Source: an uncultured Methanosarcinales archaeon | GTDB taxonomy: Archaea; Nanobdellota; Nanobdellia; Woesearchaeales; CAYSVS01 | NCBI GenBank assembly: GCA_964589485.1 | Contig: CAZPRK010000001.1 | Location: 1-48,368, forward strand | Length of the DNA: 48,368 nucleotides | Reading direction: 5' to 3' | In this document: one piece after another, positions 16,552-45,719 of the stretch | Layout: each line of letters opens with the position of its first letter | Numbering within the stretch: the first letter of the stretch is position 1 | Translations under genes and position numbers: made by a program | Notes under the pieces: generated by a model | The model's input: the letters and a program-made list of their open reading frames with translations, nothing else | Told to the model about the DNA's origin: nothing | Database searches by the model: none

Positions 16552-16566
16552 TTTTAAATAGTTTGC
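16552..16566 (-). promoter_or_regulatory. Putative BRE-TATA promoter for the rpa-pyr genes
   Basis: Minus strand GCAAACTATTTAAAA in the short intergenic region upstream of rpa. Confidence 0.45.
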
Positions 16567-18545
16567 TATACTTTAGTATCTAATATTCTAGAATACTCTT
16601 CAATATTAGAAGGTTTTTCTTCATTTCCTTGAAGATATACACCATAACAATCAGCTTCAGGAACATTAAAGTTCTTACTTTCAGAAGTTGCCATATTTCC
16701 TAAAATAAGAGGTTTCTTATCAAACATACTATCACATTCACCATAATAAAGATTAACTTTTAATTCTGTTTCTTTAATACTGCTAGAATCTACATTCCTA
16801 GTAGGTGAAATTACAGTTAACCCACCATATATATAAGTTATTAAAGGTTTTTCTGGGGACAAATCATCTATTGATTTAACTTTAACATAATCATTATTAC
16901 TATTTTCGGAAATAACTTTTACATAATAATCAATATTATCTTCAACTTCTAATTCAAATTTACTTTTTTCTAATTTAACTATTGTAGGTTCAATATCTAA
17001 ATTTTTAGTATAATGTAAATAATAATCTAAATCATCATAATCAAAAGTAACTTCAAGTGAATTTTCTGCATTTATTTTATCTTCAACTTTAAAACCAACT
17101 TTTTGTAAATTACTTAATTCTAATGCAAATTTATATTCATTACTTAATAAATCAGTTGAACAAAACTTATACACATTCCCTTTATTTTCATACTTCCCTT
17201 TACAATCCCAATATAATGCATTTTTTTTCACACAATTTAATTTATTCTTTGCTTTTCCACATTCATCTAAAATGATAATTGATCTTTTTTTAATATTATC
17301 TAAATATTTAATAAAATCAAAAACTTTAATTTTAACATTAGGTTTTACTTCATATACACCTGAAATTTCACGTTGAGTTGTTTTTTTATCTAACTCAATA
17401 GTTGCTTCTCCTGTAATTTTATTTCCTTGAAAACTAGTCATTATTCTTCTATGTAATTTAATCAATTTATTAGAATATTCGGAATCAGTAGCGTATCCTC
17501 CTTTATGAATTTCAATAAACATCCTTTCAGATGAATCTAAATAATTCATTGCCCCAGAATATCTTTTAAAAGAACTGATTAAGGTAGCATAATCATAAAT
17601 AGACTCACAATAATTATTATAAGCTCTAAATTTTGCTTTCACTAAACAATCATCCTTTCCAAAAGAACATTTATATTTTTTCTGATTACAATCAATTATA
17701 AAATCTTTATTTTTTTCTTGTTGACTTGAAGAATAACATTCATGGGTTTCTCTCAAACTACAACCATTTGTTCCTTCTTTTTTTGAAGTACATTTATATC
17801 CAAACAAATTATAAGCAAAAGTTTCATCAAATTTAGATTGTTTAGTTGCTAATTGACTTCTACCCCATCCACTTTCATGTATAGCTTGTGTTAATGCAAC
17901 ATCCCACGGAACTTTAGTTTCCTTTTGAACATCCAATAAACAACCACCAATTCCAACCAAAGGACTGTTTTCTGATTTTAAAAATCTATCAATTGCATTA
18001 TTACTAGGAATAAAATCAATTTGAACAGGAATATCATTTTTAATATATTCTTTATCAATTTCAGATAAATATTTCATTAAATTTAATGGTTTACCTAAAG
18101 GAAACCGTAAATCATCTTGCGCAATTGCAATCATGTTTAATTGATTTTCAGAATCATATACAAAGTCAATATGGTAATTAGGAGGTGAAGCAATAGGATA
18201 ATTTTTCAAATATTGATTAAATTTTTTACTTACTAAAATAGACATTTTTTGTTTAATATTATTAGGAAAACAATTATTTAGTTTATTAAAACCATCAATT
18301 TTTCCACAATCACTTTGTTGATATAACTCAATTAAACTTTCTTCAAATGCAAATTTAGCAGCAACATCAAAATATAATAAAATATTTTCACTTTTTTGAA
18401 CAGTGTCAAGTACTGCTAATTGTATTTCTCCAATGTAAGAACTTTGAACTTGATGTTTAGGTGAAGCTATCAACAATATTGCTAATGCAGCCATAACACT
18501 AAGAACTACAATTATTAAAGTCATACCTCCTTTTTTATTCATCAT
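16566..18545 (-). CDS. Class III signal (prepilin-like) protein carrying a GH73/FlgJ-type peptidoglycan hydrolase domain and C-terminal beta-sandwich domains
   Basis: MNKKG|GMTLIIVVL N-terminus. GH73 motifs: ALTQAIHESGWGRS, YNLFGYK, TxE, FRAY..Y.ESI.DY, KRY, GGYATD.EY..KL. Confidence 0.9.
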   Translation of the reverse strand: MMNKKGGMTLIIVVLSVMAALAILLIASPKHQVQSSYIGEIQLAVLDTVQKSENILLYFDVAAKFAFEESLIELYQQSDCGKIDGFNKLNNCFPNNIKQKMSILVSKKFNQYLKNYPIASPPNYHIDFVYDSENQLNMIAIAQDDLRFPLGKPLNLMKYLSEIDKEYIKNDIPVQIDFIPSNNAIDRFLKSENSPLVGIGGCLLDVQKETKVPWDVALTQAIHESGWGRSQLATKQSKFDETFAYNLFGYKCTSKKEGTNGCSLRETHECYSSSQQEKNKDFIIDCNQKKYKCSFGKDDCLVKAKFRAYNNYCESIYDYATLISSFKRYSGAMNYLDSSERMFIEIHKGGYATDSEYSNKLIKLHRRIMTSFQGNKITGEATIELDKKTTQREISGVYEVKPNVKIKVFDFIKYLDNIKKRSIIILDECGKAKNKLNCVKKNALYWDCKGKYENKGNVYKFCSTDLLSNEYKFALELSNLQKVGFKVEDKINAENSLEVTFDYDDLDYYLHYTKNLDIEPTIVKLEKSKFELEVEDNIDYYVKVISENSNNDYVKVKSIDDLSPEKPLITYIYGGLTVISPTRNVDSSSIKETELKVNLYYGECDSMFDKKPLILGNMATSESKNFNVPEADCYGVYLQGNEEKPSNIEEYSRILDTKV

Positions 18546-18987
18546 CCACACATCCTTTCTGTTTAAACAAATTTAAAATTAACAAATCATTACTTCCTTT
18601 TATTGGTAAAGTTACACTTGCAGTTTTTATGCTATTTGGACAATTAAAATTATTTTTCCATAATATTTTTTGTTTTTCTTCATTCTTGTATATTGTTAAT
18701 TGCCAATTTTGTTGATAAAATGTAGATTTAAAAAAATCACTTGCATTAATATGAAAATATTCATAATTATCATTTTCAACACTACTATAAATTAAATCAA
18801 TATTCTGTCTTGAAAATTCTCTTAAAATTTCTTGATATTCAATGTCAGTAACTATATTTTCAGTATTTTCATTAATATTAATTTGTTTAACTTCCTGAAA
18901 CCCCATAAAAGAAAATAATAAAATCATTAACAAAATAACTGAAACTACTATTTCCACAATATCATAAGTAATTGCTTTTTTATTCAT
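18535..18987 (-). CDS. Class III signal peptide (pilin-like) protein (150 aa)
   Basis: MNKKA|ITYDIVEIVVSVILLMILL; GAGGTGA RBS; overlaps neighbours. Confidence 0.8.
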   Translation of the reverse strand: MNKKAITYDIVEIVVSVILLMILLFSFMGFQEVKQININENTENIVTDIEYQEILREFSRQNIDLIYSSVENDNYEYFHINASDFFKSTFYQQNWQLTIYKNEEKQKILWKNNFNCPNSIKTASVTLPIKGSNDLLILNLFKQKGCVDDE

Positions 18988-19414
18988 TGTTCACCTCAAT
19001 AAATAATTTACTTTCTTTATTATTTACATAAACTTGCTTTGAAAAAGTTCTTTGTGGTAATCCATTCCAATTTTTAGTTTGAATTACTTTATCATTAAGG
19101 GTCAATCTAAACGCAACACCTTTATCTACATTATAACATTTTGAAAATTGTTCGTTATTAAATTTACCCATATCTATATACAGGGGATAAACTCTATCAG
19201 ATAAAGTATCATACGTAGCAAAACAATACGGAGAATATACAAACCGTTGTACATATACTAAACTCTTTAATTCTTTAGGAACACTTCCTGCATCTTGTAC
19301 ATATTTTGAAGCAACCATAAAAAAAACTACAATAATTAACCCAATAAAAGTAATTCTAATCAAATTAGTTATTGTAAACCAAGTTGTAGTAATACCTTTT
19401 TTATTCAACATCAT
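18980..19414 (-). CDS. Class III signal peptide (pilin-like) protein
   Basis: MMLNKKG|ITTTWF plus hydrophobic helix; 'RFVYSPYCF' motif; start trimmed from 19426 to the ATG after GGAG. Confidence 0.78.
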   Translation of the reverse strand: MMLNKKGITTTWFTITNLIRITFIGLIIVVFFMVASKYVQDAGSVPKELKSLVYVQRFVYSPYCFATYDTLSDRVYPLYIDMGKFNNEQFSKCYNVDKGVAFRLTLNDKVIQTKNWNGLPQRTFSKQVYVNNKESKLFIEVNNE

Positions 19415-20183
19415 AAAACTCCGCAACTGCTAATTGTATATATTGAAAAGATGCAATAACATCTGGCAACTCTAAAATTATACTATTTTCATATTCCAAA
19501 TCATCTTTTGGAATTATAACTAAATCTTCTTGAATAATTTCATTTACAAATAATCTAGTTCTTATATTTTGTAATAAATCATAATTTGAAATACTTTCTT
19601 TAGAAGGAAAATAACCTTTTGGCTTTTCACCTTCCCTTAAAAAAACATTTAAAACATTTTCTTCATCTTTGGGATTTTTAACTAATAAAGAATTGTCTAA
19701 TAATAAAGCTATATCTAATTCATTTTCATTTATATAATAAACTTTATCTAACTTAATTTTTTTATTTGTAAATGATTTTTTAATTTTTCTAGTATACTTC
19801 CCGGGGAAAGTATTACTTATAGCTAAATGTCCACCAAAATATTGAATCACTAAATTATCTTTAATTTCTAAATCCATATCTAAATCACCAATCGGAACAA
19901 AACGTTTAGTTACTTTAGTTGGTTCAAAATCATTTTCTTTCACAGATAATGTATTATCTTTAATTTCGTTAACAAAAGAACTATTATAATTTACAAAAAC
20001 ATTTCCAGGAACTGAATATAAAGTATCTATTAATAATACTTCATCTCCCGCTACATATAATTTATCAACCGCATATCCATTTACAAAAGAGTTTGCAGCT
20101 TGAAGAAAAAACCATCCAACTACTACCCCTAAAACTAATAACAATAACTCTTGCATTGATAAATCAATAGATCCTTTTTTCAT
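19401..20183 (-). CDS. Class III signal peptide protein with a possible degenerate Amidase_3-like C-terminal domain (260 aa)
   Basis: MKKG|SIDLSMQELLLLVLGVVV; 'LLIDTLYSVPGNVFVNY' pilin-like core; alpha/beta C-terminus ending SIILELP...IQLAVAEFY. Confidence 0.75.
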   Translation of the reverse strand: MKKGSIDLSMQELLLLVLGVVVGWFFLQAANSFVNGYAVDKLYVAGDEVLLIDTLYSVPGNVFVNYNSSFVNEIKDNTLSVKENDFEPTKVTKRFVPIGDLDMDLEIKDNLVIQYFGGHLAISNTFPGKYTRKIKKSFTNKKIKLDKVYYINENELDIALLLDNSLLVKNPKDEENVLNVFLREGEKPKGYFPSKESISNYDLLQNIRTRLFVNEIIQEDLVIIPKDDLEYENSIILELPDVIASFQYIQLAVAEFYDVE

Positions 20184-20698
20184 TTTTCACATGGTAATGT
20201 TGTACATATACCCATTGTTTGTTCATCAGTCTTTATAGAATATATTGTATTTGAAGTAATATCTGAAACTAAATTATTATCAACAATAACTCCGCCTGCA
20301 TAACCTTCAATATTTGTAAAAAAGCTTTCAGTCTTAACATCTCTACAAATCATATTACCTTTCAAAGTAGTAGTAAATTCACACCTACTACAAAAACAAA
20401 CACAAGCTTTATTCTGACAAGTTAATGGTTTTTCTATTTCTTTATCTGAAAAACTTATTTCGTTAGTATCTTTATCAAAAAAAAAGAAAGCACTTCCTTC
20501 ATTTAAAATTGAAACAAATTTTCCTGATTCATCTAAATCAAGTTTATTTAATCCTTCATCTAAAGCATTAAAAGCATCTTTTTCAGAATAAGTATTTTGT
20601 GCATCTGTGTAACTTCTAAAAATCCCAAGAAAAGCAAATATCAATATAACTCCCATAATCAAAGAAACTAAAGCTTTAGTTGCCATTCCTTTTTTCAT
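20180..20698 (-). CDS. Class III signal peptide (pilin-like) Cys-rich protein (172 aa)
   Basis: MKKG|MATKALVSLIMGVILIF; 'KPLTCQNKACVCFC'; ATGA overlaps. Confidence 0.8.
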   Translation of the reverse strand: MKKGMATKALVSLIMGVILIFAFLGIFRSYTDAQNTYSEKDAFNALDEGLNKLDLDESGKFVSILNEGSAFFFFDKDTNEISFSDKEIEKPLTCQNKACVCFCSRCEFTTTLKGNMICRDVKTESFFTNIEGYAGGVIVDNNLVSDITSNTIYSIKTDEQTMGICTTLPCEK

Positions 20699-20952
20699 TT
20701 TGCCCTCAATAATATTTCACAATTCCTGCTACTTGTTGGACATTTTTCATGTTCTCCAGAATCACAAGGACATTTATCAATTACATCTTTAATTCCATCA
20801 TCATCAAAATCAGTACTTAATCTTGAAATTTGAGTTTCTCCAACTTCACTTTGTTTTCCTAATAAATTTTTATACACAAACATTAATATTACTGCAATAG
20901 CTATAACTAGTATTGCTTTAACTAAAAATTCGAAAGCTAACCCTTTTTTCAT
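20695..20952 (-). CDS. Small pilin-like protein with a TSP3-like Ca-binding motif (85 aa)
   Basis: MKKG|LAFEFLVKAILVIAIAV; DFDDDGIKDVIDKCPC. Confidence 0.8.
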   Translation of the reverse strand: MKKGLAFEFLVKAILVIAIAVILMFVYKNLLGKQSEVGETQISRLSTDFDDDGIKDVIDKCPCDSGEHEKCPTSSRNCEILLRAK

Positions 20953-21611
20953 TTATTTTCACCACATTTATTTAACTCAACTTCAAAACAATCATCATCC
21001 AATAATCCATCTGCATCACACCAAAGATTTCCCCTTTTTGTTGGAATAAAACACACATGACTTTCGTCAGGGTAATATAACTTTTCAACTGTTCGTTTAC
21101 CAAATTCAATATCATCTATAATAAAATCAAAACCTTCTATTATTATATTATCAACTTCTCTGAAAGTTTTTGAATTTGAAGAAGAACCTTCATTAAAATA
21201 CTTATTATAAAATCCTTGAGCTTCAACTACACATGGAACTTTCCCAGGAATATTTGTATTAATTAAACTTAAACCATCTTCAGTTATTACTTGTACTAAC
21301 ATTCCATCACTTACTTTTGAAACTATGATTTTATTATTTCCTATAATGAGATCATAATCAATAAAACAATTTTTATTTGTTTTTCGTAACTTTTCAAATA
21401 AATCCAAATAAGATTTCTCAAGTCTAGGATTTATCTCGGTATACTCTTGCTTAATATCAACTGTTTCTTGAGGTAATTCTCCTCGTAATAACTCATCAGT
21501 TGAAAGTTCTAACCCAGGTAACCAATATCTAATAAAAATTCCTGCAACTAACACTAATACTAATATTCCTAATGTCCAACCAACAACTTCAGAAAACCCT
21601 TTCTTAGACAT
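20949..21611 (-). CDS. Class III signal peptide (pilin-like) protein (220 aa)
   Basis: MSKKG|FSEVVGWTLGILVLVLV; GAGGT RBS; Cys-containing C-terminus. Confidence 0.8.
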   Translation of the reverse strand: MSKKGFSEVVGWTLGILVLVLVAGIFIRYWLPGLELSTDELLRGELPQETVDIKQEYTEINPRLEKSYLDLFEKLRKTNKNCFIDYDLIIGNNKIIVSKVSDGMLVQVITEDGLSLINTNIPGKVPCVVEAQGFYNKYFNEGSSSNSKTFREVDNIIIEGFDFIIDDIEFGKRTVEKLYYPDESHVCFIPTKRGNLWCDADGLLDDDCFEVELNKCGENK

Positions 21612-21733
21612 TAAAAATACCTCGTTACAATTTCTAACATATCAGTTCTCATTTTACTTATAAAAAAAAGTATAGCGATAAGTAATAACAACAACAATAA
21701 AATCCCCAATATTTGATTTCTTGCAAACTCCAT
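21611..21733 (-). CDS. Uncalled 40-aa single-TM micro-protein
   Basis: MEFARNQILGILLLLLLLIAILFFISKMRTDMLEIVTRYF*. GGTGA RBS 7 nt upstream; its TAA overlaps the next ATG; fills the gap exactly. Confidence 0.75.
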   Translation of the reverse strand: MEFARNQILGILLLLLLLIAILFFISKMRTDMLEIVTRYF

Positions 21734-21744
21734 CTTAATTTCAC

Positions 21745-22923
21745 CTAATTTTGAATATTACAATAATTTTGTACTCTTTGATATGGACTAACCAATACAT
21801 AATTTAAATCATCACTTAACTTTGCAGTTTCACTCCCTACTATAGTTCCTATTGTTCCTAAAGTAGCTGATCCCGCTACTGCTCCCGCCACAGCTCCACT
21901 GACAGTAAGTGCCACAGGTGTTAATAATCCTCCTGAAGTGGCAGTTATTATTGTACCCACAAATGTTCCTGCAATAGCTGCTCCAGTAGTAGCGCCGCCC
22001 CATGTACCAAGAACTCCTCCTAATAAAGAAGTTGAAGCCATAACACCTTCTAAAGCATCAGTATTTGCAACAAAAGTTATTGCATAAACTTGTTCATCTT
22101 CAACAAAATTTTCCAATATACCATCAAATACAACTCTTCCTGGTCCTTTTGACCTTTGAACATAATCTAAATAATTATAGTGATTTTCTTTTTTGACGCA
22201 ACATTTATTTCCAGAAGAACAACCCCACGTAGAATACTCAGCAGTTCCTTCTCCACAAGAACCACTACATTCTCCGCCATTATTTAAACAAGTATGTCCA
22301 CTAAAACAACAACCATTATCAGTTACATATTTAGTTTTACATTTATTACTTTTTTCATTAAACTTAAAACCAAGGGTAGATAAACAATCTTCTTCTGATT
22401 CAAATTTACTATTGCCAACACAAAATCCACCACCTAATGTACAACCATCACTTTCAGCATTTACAACTTTTACTTGATCTACCATAAAATTAATTTGTTC
22501 AGTTACAGGAAATCTATCAATATCTTTCCCATTATTTTCCAAATCAGTTATTGTAGTTAAGTAACATACATTACAATTATTATCCCACAAACTCAAATCT
22601 AATGCATTCCTTGATAATGCACCTTCTAAATTCATGTACCAACATTGAGAAATTAAATCTGCCATATTTTTTTGTACTTCTTTTACTTCTTTTCCTTTGA
22701 AAGGAATATCTTTTTGTTGAGCTTTACATTTTGGTTTAAATAAAACTTGCTTACCTAATATTGCAGCATTATTAGCTTCAGCCATACTTATTCTACAAAT
22801 TTCTTCATTGAAATTATCTTGACTTTTATCTAAAACAGTTTTTTCTAAATTTAATACTACAATACTACTTACTAAAACAATAATTAATCCTACAATAAAA
22901 GAAGCTCTTGCTTTTTTATTCAT
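21745..22923 (-). CDS. Pilin-like protein with Cys-rich (defensin-like) modules and a C-terminal glycine-zipper hydrophobic segment (392 aa)
   Basis: MNKKA|RASFIVGLIIVLV; 'MADLISQCW' core; CLNNGGEC...C...CC; GGVLGTWGGATTGAAIAG...GAVAGAVAG. Confidence 0.82.
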   Translation of the reverse strand: MNKKARASFIVGLIIVLVSSIVVLNLEKTVLDKSQDNFNEEICRISMAEANNAAILGKQVLFKPKCKAQQKDIPFKGKEVKEVQKNMADLISQCWYMNLEGALSRNALDLSLWDNNCNVCYLTTITDLENNGKDIDRFPVTEQINFMVDQVKVVNAESDGCTLGGGFCVGNSKFESEEDCLSTLGFKFNEKSNKCKTKYVTDNGCCFSGHTCLNNGGECSGSCGEGTAEYSTWGCSSGNKCCVKKENHYNYLDYVQRSKGPGRVVFDGILENFVEDEQVYAITFVANTDALEGVMASTSLLGGVLGTWGGATTGAAIAGTFVGTIITATSGGLLTPVALTVSGAVAGAVAGSATLGTIGTIVGSETAKLSDDLNYVLVSPYQRVQNYCNIQN

Positions 22924-23030
22924 GCTCCAACCGCCACCGAGAATTTCTGTCTAATAATCCATAGAACAAAGGCAAATATTGCTAAATATATTATAATCTG
23001 AATCCAACTCATTTGCCCTCTTTTAAACAT
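22920..23030 (-). CDS. Uncalled 36-aa minimal prepilin-like peptide
   Basis: MFKRG|QMSWIQIIIYLAIFAFVLWIIRQKFSVAVGA*. Class III motif, ATGA overlap with the 392-aa gene, canonical promoter directly upstream. Confidence 0.8.
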   Translation of the reverse strand: MFKRGQMSWIQIIIYLAIFAFVLWIIRQKFSVAVGA

Positions 23031-23071: not shown

Positions 23072-23308
23072 CTAGCTTTTCAAGTTAATACAACACATTC
23101 TTTCTTCGCCACAATCCACATCTGGAATTATTTGATCACACTGTCCATCTAATGGAAGACACGCCCCACCTTTAGTAAAACATGAACTTAAATCTTCAGA
23201 AATATCGCTAGTTTTACTTTGAAAAATTGCTAAAAGTATTACCAAAACAACTATAGCAATAACTGCCATAATTATTACATTAAACGGTAATCCTTGAGCT
23301 TTTTTCAT
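23072..23308 (-). CDS. Small archaeal type IV pilin-like protein with a Cys-rich head (78 aa)
   Basis: MKKA|QGLPFNVIIMAVIAIVVLVILL; CFTKGGAC...C...C...CC. Confidence 0.85.
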   Translation of the reverse strand: MKKAQGLPFNVIIMAVIAIVVLVILLAIFQSKTSDISEDLSSCFTKGGACLPLDGQCDQIIPDVDCGEERMCCINLKS

Positions 23309-23325: not shown

Positions 23326-23601
23326 TTATTCTTGCTCATAACAGAGCTTCGGATCAGTACAATCTATCCAACCAGCAGCTGGAACTTCCGCTTCCACATA
23401 TCCATCAGGTTGTGATTCTAAACAAACTCTATCTGCTCTTAAACAAACATTTTGAACTCCTACTTCGCTAGTTGTATCTACACCTTTTCCGAATACATTG
23501 ATTCTTCCAGTGAATATAGCTACTAATAATACTAAAACAACTAAACCTATTGCAGCAATTATGATCACATTTAAACTAATTCCTTGAGCTTTCTTATACA
23601 T
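23326..23601 (-). CDS. Candidate major type IV pilin (91 aa)
   Basis: MYKKA|QGISLNVIIIAAIGLVVLVLLVAIFTG; own promoter and a strong GAGGTGA RBS. Confidence 0.85.
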   Translation of the reverse strand: MYKKAQGISLNVIIIAAIGLVVLVLLVAIFTGRINVFGKGVDTTSEVGVQNVCLRADRVCLESQPDGYVEAEVPAAGWIDCTDPKLCYEQE

Positions 23602-23650: not shown

Positions 23651-24139
23651 TTAAGAACATATCTCTAACCTTACAAACATTGTTTTCCCACTTGCAGTAG
23701 GAGTTGGAATTTCTGCAACTTCAGCTTCTCCTGTGCACTTAATAGTACCAAAATTCATTACTTCATTATCAATACTTAATGAAAAATAATACTTTTTTTT
23801 CCAAGTATCTAAAGTTTGTTCAAATATTTTTGTCATAGAGTTATCAATATACTTGCATGAATCCATTATATCACTAGGACTATTTAAATTATTACAACTA
23901 ATATATTTATTAGTCATACAATCTTCAAACAATTCTTCCAAAGTAGTTTTTTTACATCCAGAAGAAGTTCTTAATATAGAAGTTAACATATTATTAGTTT
24001 GTTGAGACTCAGTATAAACTTTCTGTATACTTTCTCCAGGTTCTTTTAACACAAAAAACTGAAAAACTAACAACATTCCAAAAGATAACAATAAAACAAC
24101 AATTGCTAATCCTAATATTTCCATTTGAGCTTTTTTCAT
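23651..24139 (-). CDS. Class III signal peptide (minor pilin-like) protein (162 aa)
   Basis: MKKA|QMEILGLAIVVLLLSF; multiple Cys. Confidence 0.85.
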   Translation of the reverse strand: MKKAQMEILGLAIVVLLLSFGMLLVFQFFVLKEPGESIQKVYTESQQTNNMLTSILRTSSGCKKTTLEELFEDCMTNKYISCNNLNSPSDIMDSCKYIDNSMTKIFEQTLDTWKKKYYFSLSIDNEVMNFGTIKCTGEAEVAEIPTPTASGKTMFVRLEICS

Positions 24140-24618
24140 TTAAAAACCTCAATTGTTAATACTCCTATTGAATACTCGTCATTCACAGGATCATATAAAG
24201 AAATAGGTAATTGTGTTTGAGTTGAATCTACATTTTCTAAAGATCTATCATATACAACATATTCTTCTTCTCCTAAAAAAACTTTCTTTACAATAATTTT
24301 ACTATTTTTAAATTTATCAAAGTAAATAGTATCTCGATAAATATTGTTATCTTTTAAATATTGTTTAAAAACTTCTATTTTTTCAATATCAAAACAATAC
24401 CCTTCATATACATTAAAACCCTTTGAACATAATAATTCTGGCAAGTTCAACACTAATTGATTTATACTCACTGTAGATAACTGAGAAAACTCTTCTTTTT
24501 TAGTATCAACTGAAGTTTTTTGTAACCCCACATAAAACACTAAACCAAAAACCAATAAAATAAAAAAAACTACTAAAATTCCAATATTTTCTGCAATTTG
24601 TAATTGTCCTTTTTTCAT
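24136..24618 (-). CDS. Class III signal peptide (minor pilin-like) protein (160 aa)
   Basis: MKKG|QLQIAENIGILVVFFILL. Start at 24618 (TGATG overlap, GGTGA RBS) preferred over 24636. Motifs LPELLCS and PISLYDP. Confidence 0.85.
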   Translation of the reverse strand: MKKGQLQIAENIGILVVFFILLVFGLVFYVGLQKTSVDTKKEEFSQLSTVSINQLVLNLPELLCSKGFNVYEGYCFDIEKIEVFKQYLKDNNIYRDTIYFDKFKNSKIIVKKVFLGEEEYVVYDRSLENVDSTQTQLPISLYDPVNDEYSIGVLTIEVFK

Positions 24619-29732: not shown

Positions 29733-29733
29733 A

Positions 29734-38700: not shown

Positions 38701-41700
38701 GTCCATTCTTACTTTAAAAAAATCAATAGGATATTCTAAATTACTAGAATCATCTTCTGAAAACATATAAACTGTATAAATTCCATCTTTATATTCATCC
38801 ACTATTTTATCAAATTCTAAATCAAATTTACCTTCAACTAATTGCTTAGGATAAGATACTTGCGATGGTTCTTCATTAATTCCTTTTGTATCTTTAAAAA
38901 TTGTATAATAAGTTACAAATTCATTAATACTAGGTAAATCATCTTTAATAAATAATTCTAAACTAGGATTCCGTGTACAATTTGCACCATGACAATAAAC
39001 CTTAGAAGAATCATAATAAGTTGTAGGAGATTTTTGATCTAAAACACAATCCCTATCAGTATCTGAACAATCTCTTTTATAATTATCACTATCTTTATAA
39101 CAATATTCTTCCTCTTTATTCCATTTACATCTTCCAATATCTAAAGAATCTTTACTTGGGTTAAGGAATTCATGAGTTCCGCTTACTTTTAACTCTTCAC
39201 TCCAAATTACATCAACATCTAACTCTTCTCCACCTGTACAATCTTGTTCAGTGTCATAATCTTCACAACCAATTTCAGTTTTAGCAGTACAAGATCCGCA
39301 AATTCCGTTTTCATCCATATTATCACAGTAACATGAACCATATAATCCACACCTTGTTTTATCACAAACTCCATAAACATCATTTAATCCAGGTTGAGTA
39401 CATAAATTACAATTATCTTCTTTTTCTACTTCTTCACATACTCCTCCTCCTAATTCATCATATCTAGGGTCAGCATTCCATTGACAATTTCTGTTTAAAC
39501 ATCTATTGTTATACTTTCCATCTATATCTCCGTCTTGTTTTAAATTAGGATTTCCTTCACAAGCTCTTTTACTTTGATAATTATAACAACTAGTTACACC
39601 ACTACAAGGATAATAAGTATCTACTGAACTATATGTAGAATCATAATAACATAAAGGAATATTTTCACATGCTTCTGAAACTTCATTTGTTTGTAAAAAA
39701 TATGAAACTTTTGTACTCACTTCAGGACTTGCAAACAATCCTAATGGAGATGAACAAGTTGAACAATCACTTTGATAACTACAAAATGCATCTCCTTCTG
39801 AAGTTGGTCCAAGACATTTAAGACCACTTATTTTATTACAATCTTGAACAGCTGCATTTGCTTTTTTATTTCCATTACATTGCCAAACTTTATTATCGTC
39901 ACAAAATCTTCCACTTTGCTTTAAACAAGAATCATGGAAAGGCCCAACACATACTTGTTCAGATGAAACAATACCAGCATATTCATCATCATCATATTTA
40001 GCATTAACTGTATAACAATATTCAATTCCACCTTCAATTTCAGTATCTGTATATTCTAAAACATTAGAATTAAATTCTTCAATAGGAATTAAATTAGTAT
40101 CGCACACATTAGGATTTTCAACAGAATCATCATAACATTTACTTAAAGAAATATTCATAGGTAAACAATCATACCCCCAAGTTAAGTCTACTTGAGGTTT
40201 ATTTTCAATTATATTTATTTCAAGCCTAGGTTTAGGTCTATCTCTTCCACAATGAATTGGTTCAAGTTCAAAATTTTCATTCTGTTTATTTCCATCTAAA
40301 GTAATAGATTTAGTTTGAGGTTCAAAACCATTTGCTTTAGCTTCAACAAAAATACTACCTTCATATACATTTTCAACAATGTAATTTCCACCTTGTACAG
40401 TTTTTGTTCCAAAAGCTCCATCTATAAGTATAGTTGCTCCTTCGATCCCTTCACCTTCTTTTGATTCTACTTTCCCCTCTAACCGATATTTAACTTTTTC
40501 AAATAATTGGATAGTATATTCTTTATCACCATCTATATAAAAATCAATTATATCATTTTTTAATGCATAAGGATAATCATGATATCCTTTATAACTTACT
40601 TCTAGTTTATAAGGGTCTGTAGACATTTCTACATTAAAAAAAATAAACCTTCCATTATCTTTAACATAATAAATTTTACTTTCAGAATAAGTTCCATCTA
40701 AATAAAATTCAACTTTTGCTCCAGAAATGAGTTCATTGTTTTCATCGACTACAATCCCAGTAACAACTGCACCTTGTTTTTCTACACATTGTTTTTTATA
40801 ACAAACTTTATTAGCTGCACATCTTAATCCACTACATGCATCATCTTCACAATTAGCTCCATCAATTCCATCTTCATCATTATTCTCATCATCATCACAA
40901 ATTTCTTTATTACAGCTACTTGAACAAGTATCTGGTAACTGACCATTATTACAATTTTTAATTTTCTCCTTTGGACAACAAGTATCTAAAGAATTATCAC
41001 CATCTGAATCATAAGAATAACTTTCTTTACAATTTGTTCCATCTGCAGTATTACATTTTTGTTGTGTTTGAAAACAATCAGAATCCATACAATCAATTAA
41101 ACCATCCCCGTCATCATCAACTCCATTACTACAGATTTCTCCACAATTACAACCGCTATCACTTTTTCCAACAAAACAATCAATTTTTCCATCACAATCG
41201 TTATCTATCCTATCATTACATAATTCTTCTCCACTTTCACCTACATGATCTTCAGAATCATCAAGATTTACTGATTTATAGGTAAAAGTATCAACATTAG
41301 GAAGGTAAGCTTTAGGGAAAGAAGCTTCAAGTAATGAACCTGCACAATCACTATCACAAATATCTATTGCTAAATCTCCATCATCATCTACTTTATTACC
41401 ACAACCATTCTCGAATTCATTTTCACTTTTACATTCATCATCAGCATAATTAAACAAACCATCACAATCATTATCAAAATTATCATCACAAATTTCAGAA
41501 GTTTTAGCTAAAATTCCTTCAACAGGTTCATTATCTCCGTAATTATAACTTAAATGCGTCCAACAATCTTTATCACAACCGTCTACATAACCATCTAAAT
41601 CCTCATCTATACCATTCCCACATAAATCTATAGAATTTTCAGAAGTACTTTGTCCACCTTGTGCTTCAGGTGCTTTACATGTACACCCATTTGTTTCACC

Positions 41701-42543
41701 TGGAGAAATACAAGTATTTAATCCGTCACAATCATTATCAGTCTCACATGTTTCTTCAGCTTCCACAATTAAATTACCACAAACAGATTGTACAATACCT
41801 AAAGTAAAATCTAAAACATTTTCATCTTCATCTAAGTCAAGTAATATTGAATTTGAAGCACTTTCAAAACCAAATTTAGAAACTTCAACTAAAAATTGAT
41901 TTAATTCAGTAAAAGTAAGCGTATATGTTCCTTCTTTACCAGTTATAACACTTTTTTCATTTGATTCTGTAGCTTCTACTAAAGCACCTTCAATAACTAC
42001 ATCTTTTTCACTACTTGTAACAGTTCCAGTTAAAGTATACGATTCACTTGCTTGATTACACGCAGTATCACAAGAACCTTGAGATGAATAAACATAAGTA
42101 GTTTCTGCATTAACACAACAATATTGTCCTACTTGCGCATCTATTCCATTACAAGAACATGAACTTGACAAAGATCCTTCACAAGAAGATAAACTAGAAG
42201 AACAAACTGTAGGAATCATTTCACTTGCACAAGTTGAAGCACAAGCATCTTCATCAATAACTCCATAATTATAATCACCTAATTTAGTATCGCAGCCTTT
42301 TTTTGTAGATAATTCTTGACCATTTGTCAAACAACAACATTCTAAACTCATTTCTGGATCAGTACTGGGACATTCATCATGAAAAATAGCATCCTCATCA
42401 CTTTCACATATAGCTTGAGAAACTTCTTCTACACCATAATATCTTCCACCGTCATCACAACAAGGAACTGATACAACAGATTGAGAATTAGCTAATAGAA
42501 AAATAGTTACAATAAGTAATACACTAATCCCTCTTTTTCTCAA
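29734..42543 (-). CDS. Giant secreted Cys/Asp-rich surface protein/adhesin (4269 aa)
   Basis: TTG start with AGGGTG RBS; MRKRGISVLLIV signal; three carboxypeptidase-regulatory-like (prealbumin) domains; FN3/Ig-like domains; many CxDGxDNDxDGxxDCxDxDC modules; Asp-rich tandem repeats; no C-terminal TM. Confidence 0.88.
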   Translation of the reverse strand: MRKRGISVLLIVTIFLLANSQSVVSVPCCDDGGRYYGVEEVSQAICESDEDAIFHDECPSTDPEMSLECCCLTNGQELSTKKGCDTKLGDYNYGVIDEDACASTCASEMIPTVCSSSLSSCEGSLSSSCSCNGIDAQVGQYCCVNAETTYVYSSQGSCDTACNQASESYTLTGTVTSSEKDVVIEGALVEATESNEKSVITGKEGTYTLTFTELNQFLVEVSKFGFESASNSILLDLDEDENVLDFTLGIVQSVCGNLIVEAEETCETDNDCDGLNTCISPGETNGCTCKAPEAQGGQSTSENSIDLCGNGIDEDLDGYVDGCDKDCWTHLSYNYGDNEPVEGILAKTSEICDDNFDNDCDGLFNYADDECKSENEFENGCGNKVDDDGDLAIDICDSDCAGSLLEASFPKAYLPNVDTFTYKSVNLDDSEDHVGESGEELCNDRIDNDCDGKIDCFVGKSDSGCNCGEICSNGVDDDGDGLIDCMDSDCFQTQQKCNTADGTNCKESYSYDSDGDNSLDTCCPKEKIKNCNNGQLPDTCSSSCNKEICDDDENNDEDGIDGANCEDDACSGLRCAANKVCYKKQCVEKQGAVVTGIVVDENNELISGAKVEFYLDGTYSESKIYYVKDNGRFIFFNVEMSTDPYKLEVSYKGYHDYPYALKNDIIDFYIDGDKEYTIQLFEKVKYRLEGKVESKEGEGIEGATILIDGAFGTKTVQGGNYIVENVYEGSIFVEAKANGFEPQTKSITLDGNKQNENFELEPIHCGRDRPKPRLEINIIENKPQVDLTWGYDCLPMNISLSKCYDDSVENPNVCDTNLIPIEEFNSNVLEYTDTEIEGGIEYCYTVNAKYDDDEYAGIVSSEQVCVGPFHDSCLKQSGRFCDDNKVWQCNGNKKANAAVQDCNKISGLKCLGPTSEGDAFCSYQSDCSTCSSPLGLFASPEVSTKVSYFLQTNEVSEACENIPLCYYDSTYSSVDTYYPCSGVTSCYNYQSKRACEGNPNLKQDGDIDGKYNNRCLNRNCQWNADPRYDELGGGVCEEVEKEDNCNLCTQPGLNDVYGVCDKTRCGLYGSCYCDNMDENGICGSCTAKTEIGCEDYDTEQDCTGGEELDVDVIWSEELKVSGTHEFLNPSKDSLDIGRCKWNKEEEYCYKDSDNYKRDCSDTDRDCVLDQKSPTTYYDSSKVYCHGANCTRNPSLELFIKDDLPSINEFVTYYTIFKDTKGINEEPSQVSYPKQLVEGKFDLEFDKIVDEYKDGIYTVYMFSEDDSSNLEYPIDFFKVRMDTKEAAFTVEATDVNIYTKKFGNAEYKYSEVTFDINLVDGPGYCSADLYKAGSDQIWDSLKIENEFGESFKRKYEDLADGTYYYDVTCEDAAGNTYNKILETRTEADRRIRNAKPYTNIHTSEAILSVDTTANVDCRYYDDLTIEEYDSSFGTLLQKNIILEEDLDDIVDFYRHTSDQLDLESDTYKYKVICNDENNPFKEILFTVDDKSPTTQVLVPGTDEVYNLGDWKEAHEFELKCVDEKFNSKNYNHLGELGGFGCDKINYCFGVDCEPDLVFELPININEGDEICYQSVDKGENLENKICTAVNVDNTPALISISLNELGKTEVPIVLRNNKYFVTLTSDEDLKEVKLSYEVFGASASSDIILTSTNPKLWKGSFEVPLTTNFDDIEGDANFVLSAFDLHGVESTIEQVDQIKSFEIDTKGPPAPSIFYPTGNQNQPSNKITVLGFAHEEQSNFKIRTYYTTENFKDQYDASISNAWDFIETTSFSENSVVDTVELQRSIDSGNLIYLKGNKANFEGYIDLPGHDLTDKSYYKIESNEANDEFTVLTIFPPLIKGVDENKLVNLHSKQYPTGWFSAEVPLLIGKNYLYSVELDQYGNLGTKTDYYEIVSDPNPPIITIDAPPAKVSAIAPELIKATIFEEDSLLDLSSLKIELKSRRSGENEVFTQEFKCSDEELKCTDQFGGTLEETERKAILTLTKEFPVSIYEYTVYATDTVGSLGEESNWFEVDAEVPHNPIIDLEPGITVNRIGFTNVANPIINLNFLDDMGKTVTITKLTLQDENKNFIDVSYVAEEVIPSFDTITTFIQGDEATLNLNSEDYDLSFKILQDVEITNAQFKVTGLMNNDAYAKKPWVNFGTDIVYDFITNDVAFNGEVFRDFTTNLNTLLSNCEIDDEGMCTIPVSIGDGFGNLIDAPGALKISDLIISYEPNENAKKRNTYTRYNLPLTGDLIESKYFINITANKETDDGQSKDTIVDASFIYTTEPAKLNIIMDNPTMDLSPKFRLESNLPIKCGYTLDDKEEFNTGNEYFLNFDSEPLPERKITHLNVKEKAGIEGNVPNEYIENPKYLDANHTLNFKCEGVFNGELEKEYTYQLVHPKQNRLFYGDGDTIVFQFFLEEGTSKSLIGADLSNLDSTFSSDKYITWEEDGVYYLSYEIDEDNEHQDGWKFIYLTYPGAVREKVVVHLKNTFTNVDLENSISCNSKPGYFFNEENCPYDFDVQNMYAFNKEFGNEEFNEEGFDCEGENAVNTRACASIYYKIRNLKDFQQSIVLDDPCYNDQFCMFKIRDLGVTGFYNKYASTTGNLKVRFEMSNSNTVKNNFQVYDFTGTFGQSTFTNCEGGEFIKSDISGEIKCATPENIRALMNLKIIEAIEGENKPKVQVITDVEGNNRQAVTELELFEIRNNKKASLVNSEALLNNGVYSYCNDGVDNDLDSPFEFDKYGGDKADCRDDDCNGLIVNNLGNKCELNTELSCNDGFDNDMDDPLILKSSGYAQLIEDYQDGTFISPKGRFLDCFDTDCFKQAGSKVTAEACLVKETNCNNGNNDDFDFGKYGQPRISKSYQDLSDGIALTDCLDVDCDGRSGFANCKITGGCLCEYSIDTTVDSDNDGIPDVQDDDLDGDGTKNGNDPDADNDGEVDDNYKDIVSDPDIDNDGLLNVNDEDIDGDGIENGDDPDANGDGVVDDKYKDVVIDVEKDTDGDGIVDINDKDIDNDGILNGDDPDANGDGIVDDRYKDVVPDKTVDTDNDGKLDINDEDIDNDGILNDDDPDANGDGIVDNRYKDIIKDVEKDTDGDGNLDINDDDIDGDGILNGNDPDANEDGEIDTQYEDIVDDPDTDNDGILDIDDNDIDGDGIENKHDPDANGDGIVDLRYDDIVFDSITDTDGDGTVDIDDEDIDNDGILNGDDPDANGDGRVDKKYENIVLNPLGDNDGDGKLNINDGDIDGDGINNSDDLTPVGPLGEGKNYPSSCKDEFDNDADGSVDCYDAGSCWGAGGRSDNEITNPCPAFENNNPAWCHNGKDDDFDDGAGNLDRDESSGMDCEDYDCRGIEADTIDGKRTCPVTEGQTKSFGFDAAQCFDGKDNDLDAPDKVYSGGSTANGIDCRDVDCNGVTKPNTEQSCEFEKEVSCDDGFDNDGNGFCDYLGCNGLPPDPACTTGNCYPSPITESITLDSCMASPSYLATGNEDAAVDNVANCADSDCDGQICGIGSTCKNNNCETSLNEVCNNGLDDDNDGLKDCQDSDCTSDCPNTDLTGLTLPDEVWEYNDDLSFGGSFGKVEEGTVIASYNKYVKKGDFFKLNLKGTEELGMTFFVGDDQNPLSNLNDNFNLDSNSNKQDSVSYTVKTYGGQIEPFTDNARVKIDSTFAYKATTVGQSRINLIGRVGTDQEKISTLNIKVLENVAPEFEELIVSTNPEGALITALASDSGTGIYYCNFRMYDKTTDNLITQNEHNTDCIWDYQDGLDSGIYYVEVDVFDGAGNSDSETGYDISRTFVKEGPSLSSIDGLYSTRKYFNKYKRDDLEVTMTFESDNGFNEGKCIVDISDVNNVKTDGGQFDLTLLDNNKAECKVDLPLNGYDDSLYDFAVSVTDAGGNRIITKRNPFWVCNFLRTPEGIYRCRDECTQQGLNVDIIAPVEGEVFEYPLINVKGTAPPNVILKAYVNNEYTARLQSQAKSTGDFNFNLLALSRGQNTITVLAVDELTYNTGEDSVMVIYNSEGPVVNINIEVTDSYEQAIVTFSIFDDDQDGLPDAWEDLKGLDKTYYDSNNKYNSTHTWMQYYLLTDALDIENSIFNFTRLDNIKTDEVNEEMRIDVSTTSDGNVMTANLPILEVGDYSIGVISIDQEGEAGETEFIKFHYDPLAPRPYLDPIPPSITKNESYEFRGYVTSVVPISKVELTLANSPNFKSELLTLDENNKFAHNIYLFNDENKETTFNDYEVLAYNGERYNDKTGLIIHDEKFRGVESARLVSAKERKADANIGISFEQY
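32830..33879 (-). repeat. Seven full plus one partial 45/47-aa Asp-rich (TSP3-like Ca-binding) tandem repeats
   Basis: Consensus DTDGDGxxDINDxDIDxDGIxNGDDPDANGDGxVDxxYxDIV, also visible as DNA repeats (gcatcaggatc...). Confidence 0.9.
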
Positions 42544-42584
42544 ATAAACACCCTATATATATTTAATATATTAAATATTATATC

Positions 42585-42600: not shown

Positions 42601-42629
42601 ATGAGAAATAATAAGTAAATATAAAGAAT

Positions 42630-45600
42630 TTAATCATCAGAGTCATCATCAGAAGTAGGAGTAAAAATACAATTTTTACAAGTGCCCCCATTTACAGATT
42701 TTTTTAATGTTCGTTGAAGATAACTAATTCCATCACAAATAGCATTATCTCCATCATTTTTACATTCACAAGAAGAAGTTATTCTTTTCGTACAACCTCG
42801 GTTACTTGGACCACCACATTGCGCATTACATTGATACAAACTTCCACTTTTTTCATATTCATAAGCCTCATTACAAATTCCATCAGCATTTGGGTCTTTC
42901 AAAAAACTTTTTTCAAAACTTTCACCTGGTCCATAAGCATAACAACCACCGCCAACTTTAGAATCTCCTGAACCCGGACAAGTATTAACATTACACTCAT
43001 CATTACCAGGTGCACAAGGTCCAAAACAAGATTCATCTTCACCACTTTTTTTATCAGGACAAATATTTACAACATTATATTTTTCAATCACTTTTCCAGT
43101 ACAAACATTACCTCTATCTCCTCCACATTTTTGAGTAAAAGTTCTTTTGTAAATATCATTAGATATTTTATTTTGCTTTTCATTATTTGAAATAATTTCT
43201 AAAGTTTCAAATTCATTAGCTTCAACTATATCTCTCCAATCATCACCTTCAAATTCAGGATTAGTAAAAGGATAACATGAATTTCTATCATCTTGAAAAC
43301 AAACAGTATCTTCATTTGCAATAGTCCCCCATTGTAAAGTATCCACTTCTTGATTTAATCTACTTAACCAGTTTGCGACATTTACTAAATATTCTTTATT
43401 ATTTTCATTTTCTAAATTTTCATTAATCAACCTATCAACAGAACCATCTATTAATTTCTTTTGAAACCTTTGATTAGAAGATGTTTCTCGTACTGCAGCA
43501 TAAACATTATTAATACATGCTTGAGTACCATCGGTAATAATATTCGTAAAACCACCAATAGTTTCGATATTTACAGGATTAAAAACAGTAGGTGAAACAG
43601 AATTCATAATTTCATGGTTTTGAGAAATTTCATTAAGATTATGACAAGCAGTAGTAGATTTTTTATAACCAAGAGGGGCATATTGAGACATATCTTCAGT
43701 GACAAAAAGCGCAATCGAATTTTTATCCCTTTTATTAAAACGGTTTAATTTTAAATTTTCTCCACCATCAGTATCTTCCCTAGCAACAACCCATACTTGA
43801 TCATAAGCATCTAAAGTTCCAGGAAGTATAGTTTTAAGATCAACACTAAACCCATTACCCTCAAGTAAATTTTCAAGTTTTTCATACTTATTAATTTGAT
43901 CACCTTTAATAAAAACTAAAATGTTTTTACCATTTGTTTCAGTCGCACCAGAAACACAACAAGAATGATCACCTAAAAAATCCATATAAGGATTAGTTTC
44001 ATCATACTCATCATGAAGTTTAATAAAAGGATAACTTGGCAAATTACTTTTATGAGGTAAACAAGGATATACTTCAACATTAAAAATTTCAGTCCCTAAT
44101 GTTTCCACACTATCTTTAACAGTTAATTGAATCTCATGTGATTGAGAAGCTAAATCATCACCAACATCTTCAAAAGGAAGATTATCCATTTTTATTATAT
44201 CAAAAACAGGAGGAACGATTGCAATTTTTCCACTAATATCAAAAAATTCAGTTAAATCTCTCCAATTATATTCAACATTTTGTCTTCCAGGAATTTTACT
44301 TTCACTTGAATTTAAAATAAAAGGATCTTCAATAGAAGCACTTAAAGTTGGAATGTCATTAAAAATATTATGTCCAAATGCTTTTACAATAGGAACATCT
44401 AAAATTTTAAATTTAATATTTTGCCAATCTTTTACACTAGAACCTTCTTCTTTAACACTAAATTTAACTTCATGATCTCCAACGTGTCCCATCGTATTTA
44501 ATGTATAAATAGGACCAATACCAGTATCAACATTATATTCAACTTCAACCCATTCATCAACAACTATTCCTCCTGAAACTGTTTCTAATTCAAACTCCAA
44601 TTCATCCCCATCAGGATCAACCGCTTTAGGTTCAAGAACTATTTCATCTCCTTCATTGACAACATAATGAAACCCTTCACTTGCCCATGCTCCACCTGGT
44701 GCAGTTCCTTGAATTAAATCTAAAATAGGAGGTCTATTTTTAACTGCAAATTTTAATCCTAATTCTTGACCTTTTATTAATGACCTAGAATCAGTAACAT
44801 AAATTAAATAATCAGAACCAATCTTAGATTTTTGAACATCAATAAAATTATCCCAAAGTAAAGTATTTTTTCCACTTTTTAATCCTAAATGATCTTTAAG
44901 AAAATCAAAATCAAATTTTTTAATTTCTTGATCAACTATTTTTGCAGCAAGTTCAAAAACTTTTTTAATTCTTACATTTTTTTTAATATCTAAAGAAATA
45001 TTTTTCAAAAAAGGTTCTTGATCAGGTAAAGAAAATTCAAAAGGATAATTTAATTTAACTAAAACATCATCTTCACCATACAATACGTCTACGGAAGGTT
45101 TACCTTTTTCTACAAGTTCATAATTAAATTTAGTTCTAATTACATCTAAATCTAAACATTTTTTTGATCTATTTGCAATATAAAAACTCAACAATTCTTG
45201 TAAAGTAAAATCATCAAGTATACCCCCATACGAAGAAACATCACATGTTGAAACTAAACTAGAACTAGGATTATTTGGACCTTTTTTATCACAAATCCTA
45301 GGAAATTCTCTATCACCTAAATTATTTACGTCATCAATTTTAGCATTCGGTGTATAATACCCATAGTCATTATCTGTTTCAAGTTCATTATAAATCCCAT
45401 AATTTACTTTTTGTCCATCAACCACCATAAATTTAGTTTCAGCTATTTTTTCAATAACATCTTCATCATCAGAAGAATCTTCATACAAAATTCCACCTTG
45501 TTCTGCAGCTCTAACTAAAGCTTCATTGGTTGCTTCCTCTAAACAAGAACTAATGTAATATTCCAATGCAGTAGTTTGTAACAAATCAGTTGTTAACAAA

Positions 45601-45719
45601 TTAACTTGTTGTTTAATTTGTTGTTCTGTTGTTATTTGCGCAAATATGAATATCCCTCCAAATACAGAAACTACTACTACACCTAATAAAATAAAAGCCG
45701 TAATTTGCGCTCTTTTCAA
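42630..45719 (-). CDS. Large class III signal peptide protein: pilin-like N-domain, Ig/PKD-like domains, GIFT/DUF4350-like domain, Cys-rich C-terminus (1029 aa)
   Basis: MKRA|QITAFILLGVVVV; 'YISSCLEE...QGG'; NRPPILD; 'YEKLENLLEGNGFSV...YDQVWV...NKEYLVNVANWL'; GAGGT RBS. Confidence 0.82.
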   Translation of the reverse strand: MKRAQITAFILLGVVVVSVFGGIFIFAQITTEQQIKQQVNLLTTDLLQTTALEYYISSCLEEATNEALVRAAEQGGILYEDSSDDEDVIEKIAETKFMVVDGQKVNYGIYNELETDNDYGYYTPNAKIDDVNNLGDREFPRICDKKGPNNPSSSLVSTCDVSSYGGILDDFTLQELLSFYIANRSKKCLDLDVIRTKFNYELVEKGKPSVDVLYGEDDVLVKLNYPFEFSLPDQEPFLKNISLDIKKNVRIKKVFELAAKIVDQEIKKFDFDFLKDHLGLKSGKNTLLWDNFIDVQKSKIGSDYLIYVTDSRSLIKGQELGLKFAVKNRPPILDLIQGTAPGGAWASEGFHYVVNEGDEIVLEPKAVDPDGDELEFELETVSGGIVVDEWVEVEYNVDTGIGPIYTLNTMGHVGDHEVKFSVKEEGSSVKDWQNIKFKILDVPIVKAFGHNIFNDIPTLSASIEDPFILNSSESKIPGRQNVEYNWRDLTEFFDISGKIAIVPPVFDIIKMDNLPFEDVGDDLASQSHEIQLTVKDSVETLGTEIFNVEVYPCLPHKSNLPSYPFIKLHDEYDETNPYMDFLGDHSCCVSGATETNGKNILVFIKGDQINKYEKLENLLEGNGFSVDLKTILPGTLDAYDQVWVVAREDTDGGENLKLNRFNKRDKNSIALFVTEDMSQYAPLGYKKSTTACHNLNEISQNHEIMNSVSPTVFNPVNIETIGGFTNIITDGTQACINNVYAAVRETSSNQRFQKKLIDGSVDRLINENLENENNKEYLVNVANWLSRLNQEVDTLQWGTIANEDTVCFQDDRNSCYPFTNPEFEGDDWRDIVEANEFETLEIISNNEKQNKISNDIYKRTFTQKCGGDRGNVCTGKVIEKYNVVNICPDKKSGEDESCFGPCAPGNDECNVNTCPGSGDSKVGGGCYAYGPGESFEKSFLKDPNADGICNEAYEYEKSGSLYQCNAQCGGPSNRGCTKRITSSCECKNDGDNAICDGISYLQRTLKKSVNGGTCKNCIFTPTSDDDSDD

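Follow-up and report, generated by a model that had tools for sequence, protein, structure and literature searches.

A swappable wall-hydrolase slot in a conserved Woesearchaeal operon suggests an archaeal surface filament to attach to or open bacteria

The clades of archaeal type IV filaments were defined by Makarova et al. (2016, PMC4858521), and a 2026 survey (PMC13705601) assigned system 1-type pilins to 1,990 Nanobdellati genomes and called the pilin genes scattered. Castelle et al. (2021, PMC8204110) and Vigneron et al. (2022, PMC9723730) described GH23 proteins in Woesearchaeota and proposed bacterial hosts or prey, Strock et al. (2025, PMC12352652) showed that archaeal hydrolases kill bacteria, and one DPANN genome was reported to hold M23 and type IV pili, unlinked to each other (PMC8561730). 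Woesearchaeal wall hydrolases and the idea of bacterial hosts are already published (PMC8204110, PMC9723730, PMC12352652). In this work we analyzed a stretch of 48,368 nucleotides (nt), called the window, from an uncultured archaeon of the Woesearchaeales (GCA_964589485.1). It forms the initial 48 kb of contig C1 in a genome of 1.16 Mb and 99.9% completeness, and at 16566–45719 holds an operon of 19 minus-strand genes. An earlier reading of the sequence alone had proposed that these genes build a pilus-like machine to attach to and open bacterial envelopes. No paper joining the operon to wall hydrolases was found in a literature search whose coverage left out most subscription journals, and the supplements of PMC13705601 and PMC12352652 may list some of the proteins.

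The operon represents a widely conserved, real system, probably a variant of the archaeal type IV filament with a swappable slot for wall hydrolases, and the two together suggest a surface filament to attach to or open bacteria. We give a probability of about 0.6 to the reading that the genes encode subunits of a lineage-specific type IV filament for cell contact, repeatedly armed against bacterial peptidoglycan in this taxonomic order. What we add is a fixed site of insertion, the absence of cargo in other orders, where motor genes adjoin the operon, and a control on the slot.

The class III signal peptide of the archaeal type IV filament superfamily is present, as judged from sequence, in 16 of the 19 genes, where K/R/S-K/R-G/A is followed by a hydrophobic helix; it is enriched in the cluster and conserved in relatives. 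The genes without it are two giants and a 40-amino-acid (aa) peptide, whose orthologue in a same-genus genome retains a KKA-Q leader. Applied to the whole genome, a leader detector flagged 13 of the 17 larger cluster open reading frames (ORFs) and 16 of 1,253 others, many of the latter being multi-pass membrane proteins. The count of 16 leaders in the sequence-only reading holds. KK-G/A leaders are kept in all core families, with K/R-K/R-G/A/S strict and Gln+1 frequent. The last four families (260, 148, 150 and 661 aa) retain the leader in 73/80, 64/70, 61/73 and 67/72 members, and Gln+1, Glu+3 and Gly+6 are invariant across 35 aligned members of the 162-aa family. A stand-alone 400-aa class III protein is encoded at C1:178286–179488, and a similar KKG-Q gene lies near the operon in locus L144.

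The last gene encodes a 661-aa protein, built on a scaffold of ~260 aa whose two halves (residues 4–151 and 378–481) enclose a GH73 insert and precede a C-terminal tail that is Fn3-like in relatives. The insert, named as a muramidase from the start, matches PF01832 over the cut-off (residues 207–370, E 2e-24) with the catalytic Glu and YATD present, and a sequence match to FlgJ muramidase structures (PDB 5dn5, E 2e-14) includes the catalytic motifs. Used whole as a homologue query, the protein retrieved GH73-bearing proteins only; a genome search revealed the N-terminal module, which matched 113 of 301 genomes of the order, and the GH73 part matched almost none. Of these 113 loci, 80 were fetched by score and contig size, skipping unpublished genomes; 78 hold the scaffold gene, and L096 and L110, which lack it, are excluded from the counts. 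Relatives were selected on the N-terminal module irrespective of cargo, which gave 79 copies of the terminal gene, 75 of them scanned and four short ones left out. A Pfam peptidoglycan-hydrolase family was matched at E ≤1e-3, in some cases below the curated cut-off, by 54 of the 75. Seven unrelated families are represented: M23 (21), SLT (18), M15/VanY (5), Amidase_2 (4), NlpC/P60 (3), 3D (2) and GH73 (1), counted as one family per protein, several copies bearing two or three. Five further copies, outside the 54, are weakly M15-like or NlpC-like, and three have other inserts. In L068, L086, L073 and L092 the scaffold, or the gene that follows it, bears additional cargo: GDSL lipases, a TPM domain, a metallophosphoesterase and an insert resembling an alpha/beta-hydrolase.

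The position of the cargo was examined with a scaffold profile of 259 positions built from 16 cargo-free copies. Scaffold proteins run from 166 to 1,414 aa. Among 80 copies, an interruption near position 160 is seen in 35, the scaffold is contiguous in 19, and 26 hold the first half only, the second then often being encoded by the next gene. The hydrolase lies inside the gap in all 33 interrupted relatives with a Pfam match, as it does in the window, and a few contiguous copies bear an enzyme at the C-terminus instead. As a control, 71 class III-flagged proteins of at least 330 aa from other slots yielded one 3D, two SLT and one C39 match, to which genome-wide lists add a few more; about one third of the M23 matches in the 80 genomes fall in the scaffold slot. 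A tree built from five genes in concatenation, with 68 rows and weakly resolved deep branches, requires at least 36 cargo changes (shuffled mean 43, minimum 36), and well-supported sister taxa carry different cargo. By simple patterns the SLT Glu-Ser is present in 18 of 21 copies and both M23 motifs in 13 of 22, and the GH73 motifs are intact. Since the enzyme class swaps at one fixed site, the case for a hydrolase is stronger than could be seen from the window. Archaea make no murein, and the repeated arrival of unrelated enzymes with murein as their common substrate in one slot of a conserved surface machine is strong genomic evidence that action on bacterial walls at contact distance has been selected for.

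Both the gene order and the cargo recur in relatives. The arrangement giant, 1227, 160, 336, 166, 162, small Cys-tipped, 392, ~55-aa, 220, 85, 172, 260, 148, 150, 661, RPA is kept in about 100 loci, across this taxonomic order and related ones. A module profile found 313 matching genomes among the 401 of the phylum (E ≤1e-5), mostly with one match each; this tally and that of 113/301 each include five unpublished genomes, and weak matches may be paralogues. Five named loci were found with the 162-aa protein, three from Woesearchaeota and one each from Nanoarchaeota and Nanobdellati. Because an archaeal RPA gene lies next door and relatives of the operon occur in these named archaeal records, the contig is archaeal and a bacterial origin was ruled out.

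The genome also encodes the enzymes that such a filament would need. A secretion ATPase (PF00437) is a single gene on C3, another contig than that of the operon. Directly after it, at a conserved position, comes the gene of a 748-aa protein that has about ten hydrophobic segments and may be a fusion of two platform genes. A prepilin peptidase of the A24 type at C4:52853–53695 matches PF01478 over the cut-off, Arc_PepC_II weakly and the FlaK model under the cut-off (E 7e-16). Eight loci from other orders were compared: an ATPase orthologue (E ≤1e-266) in four of them and an orthologue of the 748-aa protein in five stand immediately, or within a few genes, upstream of a shorter operon form, and the peptidase orthologue lies near the operon in one. 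Here (C3:29011–31902) and in other orders (L142–L144), the ATPase is flanked by two coiled-coil-like genes and by three small paralogues of multi-pass membrane type, all likely further machine parts. Another A24 gene (C1:63078–64031), 17 kb from the operon, was rejected as the pilin peptidase, because its neighbours are radical SAM genes and a gene for a His-rich peptide of 76 aa. It appears to be part of a His-Xaa-Ser-like peptide cluster (C1:61015–70126) that comprises the 76-aa precursor (weak HxsA3, E 0.005), the radical SAM genes and an AMP-binding enzyme, besides this A24 gene of its own.

The remaining subunits are diverse (Table 1). The 91-aa protein is the candidate major subunit, and 113 of 114 small subunits have at least four cysteines. 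Two headless peptides of 36 and 40 aa correspond to peptides of about 50–58 aa in relatives, and we take the size of the former to be comparable to Flp. The model of the 160-aa protein (pLDDT 94) shows an N-terminal helix of 57 residues together with a beta-rich head, a predicted layout as expected of a pilin. The glycine-zipper element noted at the outset turned out to be a family trait of the 392-aa protein: an uncharged Gly/Ala-rich hairpin (residues ~290–362, 21838–22056) whose like is found in 48 of 116 members, in no other operon family and in 5 of 478 unassigned proteins. The slot of the 220-aa protein grows to ~1,000–1,290 aa in L041, L052, L070, L094, L100 and L101, five of which were scanned and gave no Pfam match. 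The N-module of the 1029-aa protein weakly resembles that of the scaffold. Beside these genes stand the two repeat proteins of 4269 and 1227 aa, with Ig, Cys and Asp-repeat features. They were rejected as pilins and look like Sec substrates because a class III-like start occurs in only 6 of 28 orthologues; both are probably Sec-exported, as predicted from their sequence. Across 20 upstream loci the giants measure ~800–5,600 aa, with occasional fusions, and their repeats are of the Ig, carboxypeptidase-regulatory-like and TSP3 kinds. No hydrolase domain was found in the 4269-aa giant, nor any among 19 large upstream proteins scanned.

Two sets of observations weigh against an armed contact filament, and the first concerns the cargo. 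It is absent in both same-genus relatives and in about 12 of the 75 scanned copies; in a second, profile-found sample it was present in 6 of 12 same-order loci, undetected in all three named loci and absent in all eight other-order loci. Because so many relatives do without it, the machine has no need of cargo. Some M23 copies lack their motifs. SLT and M23 proteins are numerous outside the operon (56 and 47 of the 80 genomes have one), so hydrolase capture is a general habit. The genome of the window has no SLT, M23 or NlpC match, and its other GH73 (C21, 1–1373) is divergent and sits on a multi-pass membrane protein without class III leader. As for the possible amidase fold of the sequence-only reading, the 260-aa family matches PF01520 in 9 of 45 members and keeps DxGH in 7 of 53 long ones, so that the likeness to Amidase_3 stands at the family level. 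The zinc ligands (DxGH, Glu, His) and the catalytic Glu are missing from the protein in the window, and an active amidase in this genome was rejected. Optional cargo and a degenerate amidase thus also weaken the hydrolase claim. Furthermore, all cultivated DPANN are stated to have archaeal hosts in a 2024 abstract (PMC11291902).

The same facts bear on an alternative in which the type IV machine, bindosome-like, holds hydrolases at the surface, where they digest the wall debris of dead bacteria or grip particles, and no living bacterial host is involved. Class III proteins whose functional C-termini vary are widespread and have been proposed to functionalise archaeal filaments for scavenging (PMC13705601), optional cargo would be expected, and the degenerate amidase and M23 copies suit binding roles. 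The cargo, on the other hand, comes without ABC or sugar-binding modules: none of the 75 + 23 scaffold proteins has a substrate-binding domain tied to ATP-binding cassette (ABC) transporters. The seven families cleave different bonds and share only intact murein, the rapid turnover given above suits changing targets, and scavenging gives the membrane-like Gly/Ala hairpin no role. We consider this explanation unlikely.

The second set concerns the filament. No solved pilin matched the 160-aa model (best Z 4.8, unrelated proteins), nor was one among the fold matches of a scaffold model covering the first 200 residues with the second half missing (pLDDT 79; best Z 6.9, unrelated proteins). Such models may leave a pilin fold undetected, and the missing match would not speak for its absence. 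Pfam and NCBIfam pilin models gave zero matches among the window proteins, and the 748-aa platform candidate matched neither PF00482 (T2SSF) nor any NCBIfam model. One same-order locus bears a different ATPase and two TadC-like genes beside the operon, and for this reason adjacency is no proof of partnership. These results would suit a static complex that includes the giants and belongs to the envelope or to an attachment organelle, in which leader and helix are a plain membrane anchor and no filament is formed. KKR/KKG-type starts do occur in 6/28 giant orthologues and in other membrane proteins, and the second GH73 of the genome sits on a plain membrane protein. Such a complex is nevertheless very unlikely in our view, given the strict conservation of K/R-K/R-G/A/S with its frequent Gln+1, the ATPase and its partner just upstream in 4/8 and 5/8 other-order loci, and the long unbroken N-terminal helix of the 160-aa model. 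The nearest Atlas neighbours are unnamed Woesearchaeota/Nanobdellota clusters at 0.96; weak leads near 0.8 include euryarchaeal Class_IIIsignal (0.82), which as a lead points away from a plain anchor, and DUF7266/7287/7311 clusters.

Another alternative is a piston-like pseudopilus that exports or positions the giants or takes up DNA or nucleotides from breached cells, the hydrolase just clearing the path. The many single-copy subunits in fixed order would fit, as would RPA and RadA, present in 85 and 44, respectively, of the 102 loci holding the scaffold gene, although RPA is probably a housekeeping neighbour. Against it, ComEC and DprA are unmatched in this 99.9% complete genome, by which classical competence was rejected, and RadA sits on another contig here. 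Sec-type starts are seen in the giants, and the 1227-aa family has an anchor of its own. We consider a pseudopilus improbable to much the same degree as a static complex.

A contact filament armed against murein could work as follows. Class III proteins would enter the membrane and lose their basic leaders to the A24 peptidase on C4, for which motif and enzyme are both present; the C3 ATPase and the 748-aa protein, linked to the operon in relatives, would assemble them. By analogy, the small multi-copy subunits may form the shaft and the single-copy subunits of 150–400 aa a tip or base complex. The terminal scaffold would display its loop-inserted, swappable hydrolase, here GH73, and locally thin the wall of a bound bacterium. 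More speculatively, cells may be tethered by the giant Ig/Ca-repeat proteins, and the 392-aa subunit may insert its Gly/Ala-rich hairpin into the target membrane. The ground state would be an adhesion or contact filament without cargo. Of the machine for attaching to and opening bacterial envelopes proposed at the outset, the conserved gene order and hydrolase cargo, the ATPase and peptidase and the archaeal nature of the contig are borne out; cargo proved optional and the amidase degenerate, and attack on living bacteria is what we infer from these parts.

Woesearchaeota are a very large uncultured group, and cultivated DPANN described so far live on archaea. It is conceivable, although we would sooner doubt than assert it, that most Woesearchaeales are epibionts or predators of bacteria and that the operon is their ancestral host-contact organelle, with a swappable wall-cutter matched to host peptidoglycan and a glycine-rich subunit that opens the host membrane. 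If true, it would be an archaeal contact-dependent machine directed at bacteria, the first of its kind, and the type of host should be predictable from the type of cargo. The substrate range of the inserts could serve as a host probe, and the subunits as targets for antibodies or fluorescence in situ hybridization. The ordered operon also qualifies the 2026 view of scattered type IV filament genes in Nanobdellati.

Table 1. Genes and domains of the operon and its downstream neighbour, in order of transcription (positions in the window; a hyphen in a leader motif precedes residue +1).
Feature	Position	Strand	Basis or remark
1029-aa class III protein (KRA-Q), first gene, Cys-rich C-terminus	42630..45719	-	8 orthologues in 20 upstream loci
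4269-aa giant, carboxypeptidase-regulatory-like/Ig domains, 164 Cys, 39 DxDxDG-type repeats	29734..42543	-	domain scan
1227-aa surface protein with Ig/Fn3-like and TSP3 repeats and, near residue 1039, a C-terminal membrane anchor	26064..29747	-	domain scan
160-aa core class III protein (KKG-Q)	25585..26067	-	model: long helix and beta-rich head
336-aa core class III protein (SRG-Q), start codon uncertain	24618..25628	-	family conservation
166-aa core class III protein (KKG-Q), likely ATG at 24618	24136..24636	-	family conservation
162-aa core class III protein (KKA-QMEI)	23651..24139	-	alignment of 35 members
91-aa small Cys-tipped class III protein (KKA-QG), multi-copy family	23326..23601	-	family conservation
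78-aa small Cys-tipped class III protein (KKA-QG)	23072..23308	-	
36-aa helix-only class III peptide (KRG-Q)	22920..23030	-	
392-aa class III protein (KKA-R), Cys-rich insert and Gly/Ala-rich hairpin	21745..22923	-	
40-aa hydrophobic peptide without basic leader	21611..21733	-	orthologue of ~55-aa class III peptides at same position
220-aa class III protein (KKG-F), length highly variable among relatives	20949..21611	-	
85-aa small class III protein (KKG-L), one DxDxDG loop, 4 Cys	20695..20952	-	
172-aa class III protein (KKG-M)	20180..20698	-	longer forms in relatives sometimes with 3D or SLT
260-aa class III protein (KKG-S), C-terminal degenerate Amidase_3-like domain	19401..20183	-	
148-aa core class III protein (KKG-I), likely ATG at 19411	18980..19426	-	
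150-aa core class III protein (KKA-I)	18535..18987	-	
661-aa terminal class III scaffold (KKG-G), likely ATG at 18542	16566..18551	-	
GH73 (FlgJ-like) domain, ESGWG, NLFG, TxE and YATD motifs	17442..17933	-	PF01832
Archaeal RPA gene	15547..16533	-	directly downstream of operon

The 19 genes, a number that agrees with the sequence-only reading, are 17 ORFs of at least 60 aa and the two short ones listed in Table 1. With start codons picked by the analyst, overlaps occur at 12 of 18 junctions (ATGA at six, TGATG/TAATG at two, 8–17 nt at four), and the other six comprise one 1-nt gap and five gaps of 11–86 nt. Directly upstream on the same strand (45774–48368 and C1:47590–60225, minus), in a region with an assembly gap of N near 46900, lie a further secreted protein of 4,211 aa and Cys-rich ORFs, and relatives likewise have large secreted proteins upstream of the operon. 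A second cluster of secreted Ig/CARDB/Fn3 proteins (519, 584, 687, 252 and 934 aa) occupies 252–9622, where the 687-aa and 934-aa proteins share a similar cytoplasmic tail at their end. At 13127–15544 (minus) lies an 805-aa protein in which the catalytic and regulatory domains of aspartate carbamoyltransferase are fused to a further C-terminal domain of ~300 aa, phosphoribosyltransferase-like in look and without Pfam match, followed by an M20 hydrolase and pyrF. A PlsC/GPAT-type acyltransferase (PF01553, E 3e-14) at 10134–11147 (plus) is a bacterial-type lipid enzyme in an archaeon.

Compared with known systems, the insert recalls the FlgJ muramidase, also a GH73 and a filament-associated wall-opening enzyme. 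FlgJ cuts the wall of its own cell for rod assembly, whereas archaea, this organism presumably included, have no murein of their own to cut. The Sulfolobales bindosome (PMC13705601) shares the conserved class III N-terminus with a variable, functional C-terminal part; its cargo consists of ABC-type substrate-binding domains in separate genes, whereas here catalytic domains lie inside a scaffold within the pilin operon. Horizontally acquired archaeal wall hydrolases, which include a PF01832 enzyme and are noted as prominent in Nanoarchaeota, link our locus to Woldo/Danwoldo (PMC12352652) and the 'vampiristic' Woesearchaeota (PMC9723730). Those enzymes differ in being secreted by the twin-arginine pathway with wall-binding domains, or in being encoded by unlinked GH23 genes, and the main texts of both papers do not contain 'pili'. 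With fam00969, the large extracellular lytic-transglycosylase proteins of Woesearchaeota and Pacearchaeota (PMC8204110), the scaffold shares lineage, membrane-anchored GH23 cargo and a proposed attachment to bacterial walls. Compared by description, fam00969 proteins are ~2,000-aa single-transmembrane proteins (median 1,947 aa) with GH23 in half, longer than the scaffolds found here, and no GH23 occurs among the 19 large upstream proteins scanned; 'pili', 'pilus' and 'operon' are absent from the main text of that paper.

The closest parallel on the filament side is the system 1/Epd pilus of Methanococcus maripaludis (PMC13705601, PMC4858521), with which our operon shares class III leaders, many minor pilins per operon, a tiny headless subunit and, as proposed here, an adhesion role. 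The small pilin without globular head that marks Epd/system 1 has its counterpart in the 36-aa and 40-aa peptides, and for the 9-transmembrane EppA peptidase a crude count here gives eight hydrophobic segments. The present system differs by its ordered 16-member operon, by one long platform candidate instead of two genes and by its hydrolase inserts. The pilin set of PMC13705601, whose main text does not contain 'peptidoglycan', 'Woese' or 'Pacearch', probably misses the genes of this operon. In way of life an analogy is offered by Saccharibacteria (PMC9894109, PMC11623550), small-genome symbionts that are reported to find bacterial hosts via type IV pili, in their case bacterial ones.

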